Assembly (NCBI RefSeq): GCF_003334255.1
Contig: NZ_QOWU01000085.1
From: Escherichia coli
Lineage (GTDB): Bacteria > Pseudomonadota > Gammaproteobacteria > Enterobacterales > Enterobacteriaceae
Length of the DNA: 10,225 nucleotides
Strand: one strand, 5' to 3'
The notes below the pieces were generated by a model. The model saw only the letters and a program-made list of their open reading frames with translations. It was not told the origin of the DNA and did not search any database. A program made the position numbers and the translations under genes. Below, one piece after another: positions 2,464 to 9,897 of the stretch. How positions within the stretch are numbered: position 1 is the first letter of the stretch; each line of letters opens with the position of its first letter.

Positions 2464-3234
2464 ATGGAAACCGTATTGCATGCACTGAAAGCGATGGGAA
2501 AAGCCAATTCTGTTGAACTGGCGGCGCGGCTTGATATCAGCCGTGAAGAAGTTCTCAACGAACTGTGGGAGCTCAAAAAAAATGGCGTTGTTGATAAAAC
2601 GGGTCACACCTGGTTTCTGGCTGTCGAAGGTGAAGCCGGGGTAACCGAAGAGCGGCCAGTAAAATCTGAAACACAGGATATGCTGACCGAAGAGGTCGCT
2701 CCAAAAGTTAGCGCTGACATGATGATTGAGTTTATCTCTCAGGAGGGGGCTAAAACCTGTGAAGAAATAGCGGGTAAGTTCGGAGTTACCACTCGCAAGG
2801 TTGCTTCCACGCTGGCGGTGGTAACCGCAACGGGGCGGCTGGCACGCGTTAATCAGAACGGTAAATTTCGTTACTGCATGCCGGGGGGTAATTTACCAGC
2901 AGATCCGAAAACCGCGCCGGTAACGGAAAATGATGGTAAGGCCTTTCCTCAGCCAGCAGGTGCTGCGTTACCAGTCCGGGAAGCCGCAACACAGGAAGAA
3001 ATTAAAACAGAAACTGTGGCGGACATTGTGCAGCCGTTGCCATCGTTTACCGAAACGCAAGCAGATGAGCTGATTTTTCCGTCCCTTCGCAGGGCAAACC
3101 TGGCGCTGCGCAGGGCGAAAAGTGATGTTCAGAAGTGGGAGCGAGTCTGCGCCGCGCTGCGGGAGCTGAATAAACACCGGGATATTTTCAGTTCGATTGC
3201 TGATATTCCGGTTCATTCACCGACAACAAAGTGA
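2464..3234 (+). CDS. Hypothetical phage protein with two winged-helix-like N-terminal modules
   Basis: 256 aa, ATG with GAGG 10 nt upstream. Two similar HTH-like segments (about residues 1-55 and 85-135) are followed by a low-complexity linker and a basic helical C-terminus. No family recognised. Confidence 0.6.
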   Translation: METVLHALKAMGKANSVELAARLDISREEVLNELWELKKNGVVDKTGHTWFLAVEGEAGVTEERPVKSETQDMLTEEVAPKVSADMMIEFISQEGAKTCEEIAGKFGVTTRKVASTLAVVTATGRLARVNQNGKFRYCMPGGNLPADPKTAPVTENDGKAFPQPAGAALPVREAATQEEIKTETVADIVQPLPSFTETQADELIFPSLRRANLALRRAKSDVQKWERVCAALRELNKHRDIFSSIADIPVHSPTTK

Positions 3235-4686: not shown

Positions 4687-4995
4687 TTAAACGAAGCGGA
4701 TCTGGAGTTTTTTCCCTGTAGCACGGGCGAATTTTTTCAGTGTGGCAAATGATGGGCCGCTTGTACCTGATGCAAGATTGCTTTCCATTCTGGTTATCGC
4801 AGTCGCTTTTGTTCCCATACGTTCAGCAACTTCAGCCTGGGTTAAGCCAGCTTCTTTTCGTGCTGCCAGCATTTCATCAAGTAGTGCGAATTCATCGGCG
4901 ATGGCGTCGTATTCTGCTTTTACTGCGGGGTTAGACAACATTTTTTCTACCATATCATCGTGTGTCATGGTAGGTGGGGTACGTTTACCAGTCAT
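4687..4995 (-). CDS. HTH (XRE-like) antitoxin of a type II toxin-antitoxin pair
   Basis: 102 aa with a strong SD AAGGAGG 6 nt upstream on the minus strand. The HTH GLTQAEVAERMGTKATAITRMES is preceded by a helical N-terminal region. Its start overlaps the 3' end of the upstream toxin gene by 11 nt. Confidence 0.8.
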   Translation of the reverse strand: MTGKRTPPTMTHDDMVEKMLSNPAVKAEYDAIADEFALLDEMLAARKEAGLTQAEVAERMGTKATAITRMESNLASGTSGPSFATLKKFARATGKKLQIRFV

Positions 4996-5326
4996 GCTTA
5001 ACCTCCTTCATTCTGGTTTCAGCTTTTCTAAGCTCGGCAGGTGGAGTTTTTTGCGTTTTCTTTACAAAGCTATGCAACATAATGATTCGCTTTCCTTTTA
5101 GCGTGCAGTAAAAAACACGCCCTATGCCTTCCGAGCCCTTAAGGCGGATTTCAAACAAACCGTCGCCAAATGCCTCTGTATGCGGGGAACCAAGATTAGC
5201 TCCGTAAATACGCATTTTCTCCGTGTACCGAATGTACCGGGCTTGTAAGGTCTCAGGAAGAGAAAGGATCTCAGCTTCAACCTCGTCACTGTAGTATTCG
5301 ATAATGTAGTTCATGAGAGTAAACAT
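4985..5326 (-). CDS. RelE/ParE-superfamily toxin (Gp49/HigB-like) of a type II toxin-antitoxin pair
   Basis: 113 aa from the ATG at 5326. The C-terminal half GRVFYCTLKGKRIIMLHSFVKKTQKTPPAELRKAETRMKEV fits the Gp49/HigB-type pattern. The toxin-first gene order and 11-nt overlap with the antitoxin are typical of HigBA-type modules. The GTG-initiated 42-codon extension in the track ORF is not expected for this family. Confidence 0.8.
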   Translation of the reverse strand: MFTLMNYIIEYYSDEVEAEILSLPETLQARYIRYTEKMRIYGANLGSPHTEAFGDGLFEIRLKGSEGIGRVFYCTLKGKRIIMLHSFVKKTQKTPPAELRKAETRMKEVKHDW

Positions 5327-5386: not shown

Positions 5387-5448
5387 CTTCGCACGCCAGC
5401 AAAATCTGGCGTCGGGATTAGGAACCCCGGATAGAAACCGCGACAGAG

Positions 5449-5470
5449 ACACGCCGCGAGCGTGTTTTTT
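5449..5470 (+). terminator. Intrinsic terminator (acacgc-cgcga-gcgtgt followed by TTTTT)
   Basis: 6-bp stem, 5-nt loop and T5 tract, read directly. It lies about 60-80 nt downstream of the + strand promoter, which would delimit a short transcript. Confidence 0.55.
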
Positions 5471-5633
5471 ATTGTCGTATGCACACGCACATCTGAATTA
5501 TGGTGGGGCGTATAGGGGAGCTGAAAAGCTCGCCGGTTGGTTTCCCGGTAGTTCCTAACCCTGTACGTCTCGCCACCCGATGATTAGGAACCTGACGGTG
5601 GTGATAGTTTAGAAACCACTCGAGGGCGTCATT

Positions 5634-6305
5634 ATGACAACTCAAGTTTCTGTTGAAACACTCTCCACGATTACTTACAAGCAGATCCCCGTTATCACTA
5701 CCGAACTTTTGGCGCACCTTTACGGCACAGAAGCTATTCGTATTCGCCAGAATCACCACGAAAACAAAGGTCGTTTCATTGAGGAAAAACACTTCTTCAA
5801 ACTTGAAGGTGAAACTTTACGTGAGTTCAAGCACAGAGTAGCTTTTAACTACTCTGTGAAAATTGCCCGTAACGTTCGCTCCCTCATCCTATGGACAGAA
5901 CGCGGCGCAGCCCGTCATGCAAAAATGCTCGAAACCGATCGGGCGTGGGAAGTGTTCGAAAAACTGGAAGACTGCTATTTCAGCCAGGGAAAAACAACAC
6001 AAACCGAACAGCAGTCGCAGATTCAGCCACAATTCACAGCCGAGGAAATCATCCTCCTTTGCTACATGCAACTCTGGATGGAAAAAGCCCAGGACCTTAA
6101 CAAGCAGCTGTACCCCATAATGAAAGAGCTGAACTCCTCATACACGAACAAGCTGTATGACATTGCGTTTGAGACTATCTACATGGTGACGAAGAACAGA
6201 GACGCGCTACTAAGGGAGGTAACACGTCTCGACATGTCAAGTTCCGTTATCCAGCGGGCCATGCCAATGCTGAAAAGCCTGCGGGCAAGACAATTTGAAT
6301 TCTGA
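5634..6305 (+). CDS. Roi-like DNA-binding protein (ORF6N-type N-terminal domain, antirepressor-like)
   Basis: 223 aa with SD GAGGG 7 nt upstream. The N-terminal region (TELLAHLYGTEAIRIRQNHHENKGRFIEEKHFFKLEGE...LILWTERGAARHAKMLETDRAWEVFEKL) resembles the ORF6N/Roi-type domain as I recall it. It sits just before ninB, as roi-like genes do in HK022-type nin regions. Confidence 0.55.
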   Translation: MTTQVSVETLSTITYKQIPVITTELLAHLYGTEAIRIRQNHHENKGRFIEEKHFFKLEGETLREFKHRVAFNYSVKIARNVRSLILWTERGAARHAKMLETDRAWEVFEKLEDCYFSQGKTTQTEQQSQIQPQFTAEEIILLCYMQLWMEKAQDLNKQLYPIMKELNSSYTNKLYDIAFETIYMVTKNRDALLREVTRLDMSSSVIQRAMPMLKSLRARQFEF

Positions 6306-7828: not shown

Positions 7829-8063
7829 TATTCAGCAGGTGCCTGAACGCATGGCTTTATTCAGGTCGTCTGGAAAAGCGCATGAGCAGCGTAATAGCGG
7901 AGTTCATGGCGAAGAGTATATGAACAGATTATTCGAATGCTATATGAGACTGAAGCACGGAGATCGCTATGACCTGACACGTGATGCTGACGGTTTCTAC
8001 TGCCGTGAAGTTGTGAAACGAATGTTTGAAGTGTGGTGTCATTGTAAAGGATGGGGGCTGTGA
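7821..8063 (+). CDS. Hypothetical small protein (80 aa) between ninH and the Q-like gene
   Basis: The ATG at 7821 overlaps the ninH stop (ATGCGTGA), with GGGGA upstream. The track ORF begins at 7716 but would then overlap ninH by about 110 nt. Cys/His-rich C-terminus (CREVVKRMFEVWCHCKGW). No family recognised. Confidence 0.5.
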   Translation: MRDIQQVPERMALFRSSGKAHEQRNSGVHGEEYMNRLFECYMRLKHGDRYDLTRDADGFYCREVVKRMFEVWCHCKGWGL

Positions 8064-8677
8064 TGCGGCTAACCCCAGTATTCGGCATGGTTAACTTTAT
8101 TAATGATGCTCATTTCCGCCGCATATGGAGGCATCCGAAGAAAATCATTAACTCTCGTCAGAAAGCATGGGTTCACTACATGCTACAGGTATGGGGAAAT
8201 GTTAACGCTGGTGATGATTCTCCTTGTGGTGCAATTAACGTTATTGGGCGACTGATGATTCGCAGTCAGTGGAGCGATGACAAAGCTAAGCAGATTGAGT
8301 CTGTTGTCATGCGTCTGTATGAAGAAGACGGACTACGTGGAGATGAACTCCATCAGAAAGCCCGAGAACTGGTCATCCCTCAGTCATCGGCAGGTAATAT
8401 CATTGCTCTCGCCAAAGAATCCGATGATGCTGCTTTCGTTGAACGTGTGATGGTTGAGACCTTTCATCGTGAAAGCCCTGTCCGTGATGTAGCTATTAGG
8501 CGATATTGCAATCGCGACAGCACGCAAGATATCGCCAGGATGATTTCTCAGATAACAGGAGTTGATATTCAGTATTGCCGGAGGCGGGTCGTGTGGTGCG
8601 AGAGGGTCCTTGATTCAGAAATGTTTTATGCAATGAAGCGAGAATTGGAGAAAGAACTTCTAGTGATTGCTGGATGA
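8063..8677 (+). CDS. Putative late-gene regulator (Q antiterminator-like by position), family uncertain
   Basis: 204 aa from the ATG at 8063, overlapping the upstream stop (TGATG) with a G-rich SD. It is the last gene before a promoter-plus-terminator region and the late-gene start, where Q lies in lambdoid phages. The sequence does not resemble lambda Q as I recall it, so the call is positional. Confidence 0.4.
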   Translation: MRLTPVFGMVNFINDAHFRRIWRHPKKIINSRQKAWVHYMLQVWGNVNAGDDSPCGAINVIGRLMIRSQWSDDKAKQIESVVMRLYEEDGLRGDELHQKARELVIPQSSAGNIIALAKESDDAAFVERVMVETFHRESPVRDVAIRRYCNRDSTQDIARMISQITGVDIQYCRRRVVWCERVLDSEMFYAMKRELEKELLVIAG

Positions 8678-8837: not shown

Positions 8838-8864
8838 GCCTCGGCAGAAATGTCGGGGCTTTTT
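8838..8864 (+). terminator. Intrinsic terminator (tR'-like): gcctcggc-agaaat-gtcggggc followed by TTTTT
   Basis: 8-bp stem including two G-U pairs, 6-nt loop and T5 tract, read directly. Confidence 0.55.
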
Positions 8865-8996
8865 GTTTGCACAACAGGTAAGAGCATTGAACCCGCAGAC
8901 CTCGTGGAATTGGTGAAAGGTGTGCGCAGTGCTCTTATCGTTGTGGTGAAGCTCAATGGCGAGCTAGCAGACAGGCGACTGTGAAAATACTAGTCA

Positions 8997-9068
8997 TGTA
9001 GCGGATCGCCGCGCGTATTGTAATCGGCAGCGCACCGATGGGAGCTGGTTCGATTCCGGCCGCCACAA
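8997..9068 (+). tRNA. tRNA-like element, possibly a degenerate tRNA or tRNA remnant (anticodon-position triplet GCG)
   Basis: It has a canonical T-arm (gctgg-TTCGATT-ccggc), a 7-nt acceptor 3' strand cgccaca, and an anticodon-like arm (atcgg-cagcgca-ccgat). But the acceptor 5' strand tgtagcg gives one A-C mismatch, there is no convincing D-arm, position 33 is A, position 37 is C, and no CCA is encoded. A second acceptor/D-arm-like fragment lies at 8942..8964. Confidence 0.3.
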
Positions 9069-9383
9069 TCCAAACTGAGCCGTAGCCTCTGGGTGTCCTG
9101 AATTCATCAGTGATAGTTACGCTGCGGCCTTCTACATACGATTTTTGTGAAAAGCGGGTGGCAAGAGGCTGCGAAATTTTTAAATACCTCACAATTCCAC
9201 AGCTTGATGATTGTCTGGCTGCCGGAGAATTTGTTAAAAATTGCATCGCGTGGTGAATCCCCCTCAGCGGCGGGGCATCTGGCAAAGTGTATGATCCAGC
9301 GAACATGCAAATTCAGTAGCCAGGCTGAATTTACCGGGAGGCACCTGGCACCATGCGACAGACAGAAATTAGGCTATACTTCA

Positions 9384-9406
9384 GCCCCTCTCCGGAGGGG
9401 CTTTTC
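9384..9406 (+). terminator. Intrinsic terminator of unit 1 (gcccctc-tccg-gaggggc followed by TTTTC)
   Basis: Perfect 7-bp GC-rich stem, tccg tetraloop and T tract, read directly. Confidence 0.75.
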
Positions 9407-9596
9407 TGTGCAGGATGTGTCACAGTTTCCTGAATTCTGAGTACTGTCCTGTTACTCAGGGTGCTATATTTTCTGACGTGATGAAAGTCTGCCGGAAGGC
9501 GGAACGTATCGGAAATGACCCAGTAGAGAAAACGTTGACTCAGATACCGATGCTGAGTTACCGGGAAACCGGCATCACATGACCGCTATCCTTCCA

Positions 9597-9619: not shown

Positions 9620-9866
9620 ACTGCAGAAAACAGTTTTCCCGTAAAATGCCACGTTACTCACAATTCAGGCTGGCGATTATTGTCTGGCCAGCGGGAAGTT
9701 TGTTAAAAAAATATGGCATGGTGAATCCCCCTGTGCGGAGGGGCATATCAGCGACAGGTGTTTGGTCACACCCCTTATCCTTTCTGGTGCGGGTTCAGGT
9801 GCTGATACTGAACTCACCGGGAGGCACCCTGCACCATGCATGAACGGTACATAGCGCTACTCTCCA

Positions 9867-9890
9867 GCCCCTCTCCGGAGGGGCTTTCTT
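9867..9890 (+). terminator. Intrinsic terminator of unit 3 (gcccctc-tccg-gaggggc followed by TTTCTT)
   Basis: Stem and loop identical to the unit 1 terminator, read directly. Confidence 0.75.
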
Positions 9891-9897
9891 GTTGGAT

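Follow-up and report, generated by a model that had tools for sequence, protein, structure and literature searches.

A conserved tRNA-like RNA element with a predicted fifth arm and a self-complementary loop in enterobacterial phages

The stretch of DNA considered here (the window) spans 10,225 nucleotides (nt) of an Escherichia coli contig (NZ_QOWU01000085.1 of RefSeq assembly GCF_003334255.1), and its positions 8942-9068 host a 127-nt tRNA-like element. We found that this element is a complete, strongly conserved, and horizontally mobile phage RNA gene, and it is near-certain that it represents a real structured RNA gene. The molecule is predicted to fold into a five-way junction composed of an acceptor stem, a D arm, a new arm (helix A, an internal loop, and helix B), an anticodon-like arm, and a T arm (Table 1). 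Its upper half is canonical, with the acceptor stacked on the T arm and a G18-G19 D loop forming the elbow. The lower half is remodeled: it combines an Arg-type anticodon hairpin that is unfit for normal decoding (A33 and C37) with the fifth arm, which sits where nucleotide 26 would be. A previous sequence-only reading had listed a number of features in this segment, all of which, including the canonical T arm, A33, and C37, were present when we checked the sequence. It had considered a decayed or disrupted tRNA, a tRNA-derived recombination site, and a real non-canonical tRNA-like RNA; conservation and compensatory covariation support the last of these options.

Compensatory changes across the fold

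A covariance model was built from 70 variants, and 77 copies, 76 of them distinct, were realigned to it. Among the 76 distinct sequences, 95.3% of the cells were paired, compared to 31-48% when the partners were slid, and 24 of the 37 pairs had changed on both sides; none of 500 shuffles reached the observed values for pairing and both-sided change. RNAalifold, when run without a supplied structure, yielded the same arms, with only the lower 4 pairs of helix B and three of the four pairs each of the D stem and helix A. Since folding of the single 128-nt sequence returned a minimum-free-energy structure that is not a cloverleaf (z = -1.1), it is the comparative data that settle the structure.

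In the acceptor stem, we observed UA/AU and GC/AU exchanges. The stem extends to the pairs -1:73 (UA 39, GC 20, AU 11) and -2:74 (GC 66, AU 4, GU 3, UA 1); position 73 covaries with -1 as a base pair. The T stem is 98.9% paired, with both-sided changes in four of its five pairs, and the anticodon-like stem AUCGG/CCGAU is replaced by AUAGG/CCUAU, AUUGG/CCAAU, AUCAG/CUGAU, or ACCGG/CCGGU. Helix A occurs as GCAG/CUGC, GUGU/ACAC, GGG/CCC, GAG/CUC, or GCGA/UCGC, such that three of four pairs changed on both sides, as did all 10 model pairs of helix B (for example, GGCGACAGU/GCUGACCGCC, GUUUUGCGGU/ACCGCAGGAU, AUCCAUG/CAUGGAU, and CUUGCGG/CCGCAAG). The predicted D stem is 99% paired and displays one-sided change only (C-G to U-G), and its support comes mainly from the tRNA model. 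A pairing of CUAG at 8963-8966 with CUAG at 8991-8994 was also considered and rejected, as the second motif becomes CGCG or CCGG while the first stays CUAG.

The earlier proposal that an acceptor/D-arm fragment at 8942-8964 belongs with the 3' part of the element, despite ~57 nt in between, was borne out by the 7-bp (base pair) acceptor stem and its covariation. The same reading had also assigned GUAGCGG (8999-9005) to the acceptor as a 5' strand containing an A-C mismatch, which did not hold up: this segment varies freely, covaries with 8974-8982 as part of helix B, and shows no covariation with the nearly constant 3' acceptor strand. Nor is the element a tRNA that has decayed or been disrupted, given that the 58 intervening nt are conserved with the rest and form two helices with compensatory changes. 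The failure of tRNA finders and the several non-canonical core positions could still be taken to indicate a functionless pseudogene or the leftover of a tRNA-borne attachment site, but this explanation, to which we give next to no credence, is refuted by the covariation, that is, by purifying and compensatory selection over about 76 variants. In addition, the boundaries of the unit are identical in four unrelated contexts, and the unit lies neither at prophage ends nor beside integrase genes. A tRNA-derived recombination site fares no better, as the unit is found in leaders and tRNA clusters instead of at prophage ends, and the constraint acts on RNA pairing, G-U intermediates included.

We also asked whether the conservation could be due to a protein gene on the minus strand (window open reading frame 8953-9306). 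The record of Escherichia phage PhiR5_2 has a hypothetical protein across the site, and annotated coding sequences overlap the element in PV340546 and a number of records of Skate-like phages. However, conservation ends at the ends of the RNA and not at those of the reading frame, homologs are distinguished by indels of 1, 3, and 16 nt, and the substitutions compensate for each other in pairs, all of which refutes this explanation and leaves it a negligible chance.

Table 1. Predicted features of the element and of the DNA on its 5' side, in window coordinates
Feature	Position	Strand	Remarks
Q-like antiterminator gene	8051-8677		phrog_753, E = 3.5e-68
tR'-like terminator, GCCUCGGCAGAAAUGUCGGGGC and U run	8838-8863	+	From the sequence; partial alignments to terminator hairpins of other families
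CACAAC at 5' foot of leader hairpin	8870-8875	+	Complementary to GUUGUG 8940-8945 (-2 to +4)
Leader hairpin abutting the element	8877-8939	+	13-bp base GGUAAGAGCAUUG / CAGUGCUCUUAUC and upper stem
Acceptor extension, G8940 and U8941	8940-8941	+	Pair with U9069 and A9068, respectively
Acceptor stem, 5' strand UGUGGUG	8942-8948	+	7 bp with CGCCACA 9061-9067, one U-G
A8-A9 linker	8949-8950	+	Between acceptor 5' strand and D arm
D arm, GCUC-AAUGGC-GAGC	8951-8964	+	6-nt loop AAUGGC with G18 and G19; Rfam tRNA alignment
Stretch between D stem and anticodon-like hairpin	8965-9022	+	58 nt
Helix A, 5' strand GCAG	8967-8970	+	Pairs with UUGU 9018-9021; base of fifth arm
Fifth-arm internal loop, 5' side ACA	8971-8973	+	Consensus AUA, then an almost invariant G
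Helix B, 5' strand GGCGACUGU	8974-8982	+	Pairs with GCGGAUCGCC 9001-9010, A9005 bulged
Fifth-arm apical loop	8983-9000	+	18 nt; begins GAAAA; holds the hexamer; A-rich flanks conserved in type
Self-complementary hexamer ACUAGU	8989-8994	+	Proposed kissing-loop dimerization site
Helix B, 3' strand	9001-9010	+	Covariation with 8974-8982
Fifth-arm internal loop, 3' side GCGCGUA	9011-9017	+	Nearly invariant
Helix A, 3' strand UUGU	9018-9021	+	Pairs with 8967-8970
Anticodon-like arm, AUCGG-CAGCGCA-CCGAU	9023-9039	+	7-nt loop 9028-9034; A33, C37, 'anticodon' GCG
Variable loop GGGA	9040-9043	+	4 nt; consensus GGAA in alignments
T arm, GCUGG-UUCGAUU-CCGGC	9044-9060	+	Rfam tRNA alignment; stem covariation
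Acceptor stem, 3' strand CGCCACA	9061-9067	+	Pairs with 8942-8948
Position 73 (discriminator) A9068, and U9069	9068-9069	+	Pair with U8941 and G8940

The alignment of the Rfam tRNA model coincides exactly with 8942-9068 and leaves a 74-nt stretch after the D arm unaligned; it reaches 26.5 bits (E = 0.0019, 421 nt searched), short of the gathering score of 29. At the gathering threshold, Rfam 15 returned nothing for the window and nothing for 7 homologous variants. A permissive search of the window region (E up to 10) recovered only the sub-threshold tRNA together with spurious microRNA and terminator fragments; apart from tRNA, no family approached its threshold, and there was no match to any intron family. 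ARAGORN predicted no tRNA or transfer-messenger RNA (tmRNA) anywhere in the window and none in the homologs tested. The sequence-only reading had proposed tRNA finders as a check of the element; similarity to tRNAs is indeed present at this sub-threshold level, whereas ARAGORN did not report it. Searching the literature for the sequence itself and for the topic turned up no account of the element.

The features shared with canonical tRNAs are the 7-bp acceptor stem, the D stem and loop with G18-G19, and the T arm with GUUCGAUU and a GUUCRAnY loop. The element departs from them in that, where a tRNA has the single nucleotide 26 between the D and anticodon stems, 58 nt form the conserved fifth arm. 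Moreover, every copy collected carries A33 and C37, whereas essentially all decoding tRNAs carry U33 and a purine at 37. U8 is replaced by A8 (A8-A9 is nearly invariant, with one row reading CAAGCT), and the D loop has 6 nt only. The 3' flanks vary by context, and a consistently encoded unpaired CCA is absent 3' of the element, CCA being encoded in some contexts only. A different assignment of the arms, in which the new arm would be a lengthened anticodon arm and the AUCGG hairpin an extra arm of the class II type, fits the sequence equally well.

Given these likenesses, the element might be a working tRNA-Arg (anticodon GCG or UCG) that tolerates the fifth arm on the ribosome or loses the insertion by some unknown splicing. 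Its anticodon-like arm resembles that of E. coli argV, a tRNA-Arg(ACG) with CUCGG-CUACGAA-CCGAG, in four of five stem pairs and at loop positions 32, 35, 36, and 38, and differs at 33, 34, and 37. Position 34 is restricted to G or U, either of which preserves the Arg identity, C35 and G36 never vary, the element can stand in tandem with real tRNA genes, and the Prokaryotic Genome Annotation Pipeline (PGAP) calls one 127-nt copy a tRNA-Arg (L008 3018-3144). We nevertheless consider a decoding role improbable. The invariant A33 and C37 are contrary to what decoding tRNAs carry, as are A8 for U8, the 6-nt D loop, and the paired position 73; ARAGORN rejects all copies tested, and the Rfam tRNA score stays below the gathering score. 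The insertion lies outside the anticodon loop, is at 57-58 nt too small for a group I intron (200 nt or more), matches no intron family, and has conserved loops of its own that point to a function in the mature RNA. Besides, GCG would only duplicate decoding by the abundant host tRNA-Arg(ICG). Taking A33, C37, and the paired position 73 as the basis, we regard the element as probably non-decoding.

Public records label the element inconsistently. Apart from the 127-nt tRNA-Arg in L008, we encountered a 58-nt 'tRNA-Ser' (L002 3087-3144), 'polyubiquitin-A', 'terminator', and a minus-strand hypothetical protein (L001 9254-9586), while most records leave it unannotated.

Conserved loops and the self-complementary hexamer

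Within the apical loop of the fifth arm, a hexamer is found at a fixed position (equivalent to window 8989-8994) and takes the forms ACUAGU, UCUAGA, UCGCGA, UCCGGA, ACCGGU, GCUAGC, and UCUGGA, six of which are self-complementary by Watson-Crick pairs and one through a G-U pair. Across the 76 distinct sequences, self-complementarity holds in 228 of 228 cells: pair 1-6 is AU in 43, UA in 29, and GC in 4, pair 2-5 is CG in all 76, and pair 3-4 is UA in 58, GC in 12, CG in 4, and UG in 2. In controls with the hexamer slid, the value was 19-41% when counted over all three pairs (75% for the sole pair left at slide -3). Because the adjacent positions 3 and 4 are unable to pair within one strand, the constraint must act between two molecules. 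The UCUGGA form is self-complementary only as RNA, via G-U, and is the step one would expect between UCUAGA and UCCGGA.

Covarying palindromes of this kind were taken by Kretsch et al. to call intermolecular kissing loops in the OLE and GOLLD RNAs (bioRxiv 10.1101/2024.12.08.627333). Judging from its sequence behavior, we consider it likely that the hexamer serves as an intermolecular kissing-loop homodimer site in the common form of the element. A short subfamily from metagenomes (L211, L216, and L217) has a helix B of 6-7 bp and a (C/U)GAAGAG loop with no palindrome, all else being conserved. Dimerization thus cannot be essential to the core function, which weighs against giving it a central place; in the common form, it would seem to be an accessory. 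The GAAAA or GAAGA at the start of the apical loop was also examined as a possible mimic of boxB; this was rejected, given that the long forms have no closing stem, the motif is not strictly conserved, and the element is also found in phages showing no sign of N-type antitermination.

The anticodon-like loop is equally constrained in part, reading (C/U/A)-A-(G/U)-C-G-C-A, with positions 33 and 35-38 invariant in every copy. Position 32 is C, U, or A, and position 34 is G or U only, both giving Arg anticodons. The 5' pattern by which 138 of the loop-scored copies were collected leaves the loop unconstrained. The internal loop of the fifth arm, A-Y-A(-G) opposite GCGCGUA, is nearly invariant in the alignments. 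Its sequence misfits the kink-turn and loop-E consensus, and both motifs were rejected. Instead, the GCGC of the internal loop could pair with the GCGC of the anticodon-like loop in a hypothetical tertiary contact. In line with some coupling between the two regions, U at window position 9010 occurs in 11 of the 12 sequences with U34 and in 11 of the 64 with G34 (Fisher p = 1e-6, with no correction for phylogeny; columns 77 and 97 of alignment A7 correspond to window positions 9010 and 9030). This association hints either at shared ancestry or at a shift of register in the putative contact between the loop and the internal loop. Viewed together, the Arg-like loop with its invariant positions and the internal loop suggest a recognition surface.

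Distribution and genomic settings

A BLAST search with the element and short flanks (window 8925-9075) as the query retrieved 92 phage records from Escherichia, Salmonella, and Pantoea, each with at least 80% coverage. Most of them are Salmonella Skate-like siphoviruses, and the others include lambdoid phages, P22-like phages, and Pantoea phage PdC23. The region of the window that was queried is 100% identical to PhiR5_2. The element was also detected in 175 of 5426 complete E. coli genomes, with all copies being chromosomal. The most divergent matches (72-77% identity) are in unrelated phages, and their alignments begin and end at the element's own ends.

Pattern scans added copies in >120 viral contigs, 61 metagenome contigs, one Enterobacteriaceae genome, and Klebsiella pneumoniae ATCC 13883. 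In species-representative genomes, the D-arm pattern gave 14 matches, of which the true ones are the two genomes just mentioned and a contig of a metagenome-assembled genome classified as 'Cellvibrionaceae'; 10 of the other 11 were examined, and all were chance matches without the element. The 'Cellvibrionaceae' copy (L152 4317-4453) scores 153.3 bits, the same as the commonest E. coli variant, and added no new sequence; its contig is probably a mis-binned enterobacterial phage contig. What we describe is a compact structured RNA exchanged among phages of E. coli, Salmonella, Klebsiella, and Pantoea that annotation pipelines have missed or mislabeled.

We sorted 136 distinct flank contexts by two sequence signatures, and the remainder by eye, and found leaders of antiterminated operons to be the location of most copies. 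Late-operon leaders, as in the window, account for about half of the distinct contexts; in these, a gene for Q is followed by a tR'-type terminator, a covarying leader hairpin, and the element. The window as matched to PhiR5_2 has the order cro, cII, O, DnaC-like ... NinB, RusA, NinH, Q-like antiterminator, hairpin, and element. The tR'-like terminator just upstream had already been pointed out in the sequence-only reading. The Q-like gene and this terminator were confirmed by phrog_753 and by the hairpin and U run in the sequence, respectively; a simple terminator scan did not list this hairpin. That reading had further linked the element to the tRNA genes of Stx phages. The position agrees with this link, whereas homology does not, as ileZ, argN, and argO of phage 933W have no specific similarity to the element.

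The abutting leader hairpin has a fold energy of -28.6 kcal/mol (z = -3.2), and its base covaries between contexts (GGAGAGAGUAUUU/AAGUACUCUCUUC, GGUAAAUCAAUUU/GGGUUGGUUUAUC, and CAGGUAAUGGCACUG/CAGUGCCAUUACCUG). The CACAAC motif at its 5' foot is present in all late-leader and tRNA-cluster contexts, and the minimum-free-energy fold of the 219-nt precursor pairs this motif with GUUGUG instead of forming the acceptor stem. In this predicted fold, the CACAAC-GUUGUG pairing could compete with the acceptor stem, as a folding intermediate or as a switch. Its likeness to the 3' end of the element itself (CCACAAC) is, moreover, reminiscent of a direct repeat. Small RNAs of the STnc100 family often follow the element in the late-leader setting; the window has two diverged copies 3' of it, at 9218-9411 (139 bits) and 9687-9896 (130 bits).

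The second setting is the N leader. E. coli EC28 is identical to lambda from PL through nutL and then from the stem base to the N start codon, and in E. coli prophages of lambda immunity the element replaces exactly the top of the lambda leader hairpin, with the stem base kept (L007 2990-3140 compared to lambda, L169). The arrangement recurs in other immunity types, where covarying flanks lengthen the acceptor stem to 12-18 bp. In the third setting (the L012 group), the element lies between two intrinsic terminators 3' of a Q-type gene, with a terminator ~10 nt downstream; STnc100 occurs 3' of the element in this group as well (L012 4388-4590).

The fourth setting is a separate unit in virulent Skate-like Salmonella phages and related contigs, on the strand opposite the tail genes and behind a strong sigma-70-type promoter (TTGACA-17-TAGATT). 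Real tRNA genes often follow here, namely, Ile, Met/Ile-CAU, and Arg-UCU (once just 5 nt downstream). Contexts from virulent phages also have a second hairpin 3' of the element (L216 11700-11800, minus strand, of the leader type AGGUAAUAGCAUUG ... CAGUGCUAUUAUCU), and L002 carries a 13-bp hairpin at 3137-3211, where related phages carry tRNA-Ile. These second hairpins may serve in the processing of the tRNA cluster or mark its boundaries. The fifth setting is the nin-like region of Pantoea phage PdC23. Finding the same cassette in such different settings speaks for a self-contained function that depends on host factors. The element is placed where phages put cargo that is strongly expressed in lytic growth, beside real tRNA genes.

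Two other groups of features in the window deserve mention. An Ant-type antirepressor gene (5634-6305, phrog_377) is directly preceded by an isrK Hfq-binding RNA (5393-5470, 69 bits) and a C4 antisense RNA (5496-5580, 66 bits), and together they form a P1/P7 immI-like or Gifsy-1 isrK-type module in the nin region of a lambdoid phage. In the PhiR5_2 record, a HigB/HigA toxin-antitoxin pair (window 4687-5101, minus strand) is located between the replication genes and this module.

Candidate roles and related RNAs

Our overall model, to which we assign a probability of roughly 45%, is that the element would be a stable, non-decoding, trans-acting mimic of tRNA-Arg, excised by tRNA-processing enzymes and dimeric in its common form. 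The copy in the window would be carried on the Q-dependent late transcript, where it lies ~80 nt beyond tR' and immediately 3' of the leader hairpin. The canonical upper half would make the transcript a substrate of RNase P, acting at the 5' end, and probably of other tRNA-handling enzymes, and the long flanking stems would possibly be RNase III sites; the RNA would in this way be released and stabilized. In trans, it would then occupy a host factor that recognizes tRNAs, such as a tRNA-directed defense nuclease or a tRNA enzyme. We propose this decoy role tentatively and hold it to be doubtful. Since tRNA cleavage is now known as a common target of anti-phage defense, a non-decoding tRNA mimic with a dimerization loop would be a plausible new player in this conflict.

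Several points speak against this model. The paired positions -1:73 and -2:74 and the lack of a consistent free discriminator and CCA are atypical for a substrate of RNase P or of the CCA-adding enzyme. We identified no partner protein or target and no consistently co-occurring gene, although the whole-genome comparison for such a gene was not completed. Phage HK75, which carries the element, is still restricted by P2 Old, a tRNA-cleaving defense (bioRxiv 10.64898/2026.07.10.737580). The sensitivity of HK75 implies that P2 Old, at least, is not countered by the element. Finally, the exact swap with the lambda N-leader hairpin fits processing in cis as well as a role in trans.

The last point leads to the possibility that the element is a cis-acting processing module, whose tRNA-like fold would mainly offer an entry site to RNase P or RNase III, the RNA set free being a by-product. 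The cut would detach the antitermination leader (qut/tR' or nutL) from the downstream message, or it would give this message a structured, protected 5' end. Besides the swap in the lambda-immunity prophage, whose replaced hairpin top we take to be an RNase III site, this possibility draws on the prolonged N-leader acceptor stem (12-18 bp, with compensatory differences between immunity types), on the covarying hairpin that abuts the element in late leaders, and on the location of most copies in leaders of antiterminated operons. A processing signal, however, needs neither the invariant CAGCGCA loop nor the GCGCGUA internal loop nor the palindromic hexamer, and there is no downstream message for the stand-alone, promoter-driven units opposite tail operons or for the copies between terminators. 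We therefore rate a role in cis alone as unlikely, while noting that the cis-processing and trans roles are not mutually exclusive and may coexist.

A bolder variant of the trans-acting mimic would be one that assembles with itself. Two or more copies, joined by the apical palindrome and perhaps, in addition, by GCGC in the anticodon-like loop and GCGCG in the internal loop, would offer a number of uncleavable tRNA(Arg)-like faces and so trap or inhibit an oligomeric host tRNA-targeting defense nuclease or tRNA enzyme. Speculative and quite unlikely as we consider it, such a mimic would, if real, be a new RNA-only class of phage counter-defense on a mobile cassette. Independently of its role, the element is of interest as a natural five-way-junction tRNA, and it is open to study in standard laboratory phages, such as HK75. 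The apparent swap with the RNase III hairpin of the lambda N leader, in turn, makes it possible to examine the control of N expression by leader processing.

The element belongs to no described family, and its nearest kind are the tRNA-like stable RNAs of phages. T4 species 1 and 2 (rnaC and rnaD; 139 and 119 nt) are likewise small stable phage RNAs, located in a tRNA cluster directly after tRNA-Arg, and rnaC resembles a tRNA at its 3' end, in the acceptor and T arm. They are not homologous to the element, however: our family model gives rnaC 14 bits, owing to a generic T arm and acceptor, and rnaD nothing. In addition, rnaC is without the D arm and the Arg-like hairpin, and no self-complementary loop was noted in it. 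To our knowledge, the function of both T4 RNAs is still unknown. Like the element, class II tRNAs have an extra helix at the side of the D/anticodon junction, but theirs is in the variable region, whereas that of the element is 5' of the anticodon-like stem, at position 26.

Non-decoding RNAs that keep the upper half of a tRNA and replace or extend its anticodon side include tmRNA and YrlA. Unlike in those, a real D stem is present in the element. For tmRNA, ARAGORN found neither the RNA nor a tag reading frame, Rfam gave no match up to E 10, and the element is only 127 nt long. The ends of YrlA form a Ro-binding stem around an internal tRNA-like module, whereas those of the element form the acceptor stem, and Rfam likewise gave no match to YrlA up to E 10. 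With regard to the hexamer, the dimerization initiation site of HIV-1 is a six-nucleotide palindrome in a purine-flanked hairpin loop that has alternative self-complementary versions; it belongs to an unrelated molecule and biology, and the analogy is one of mechanism only.

ROOL and GOLLD are RNAs of phages and prophages, of unknown function, that are often found beside tRNA islands, and together with OLE they self-associate via kissing loops (bioRxiv 10.1101/2024.12.08.627333). These RNAs measure 500-800 nt or more and are not tRNA-like, as opposed to the 127-nt element, for which only a dimer contact is indicated from sequence and which gave no match to them in Rfam. As for the lambda N-leader hairpin, it occupies the same position as the element in lambda-immunity prophages and shares the base of the stem (GGCUUUGGGGUGUG... 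/ ...CACACCACCAAAGCU), whereas its top is unlike the element and scores 6 bits with the family model.

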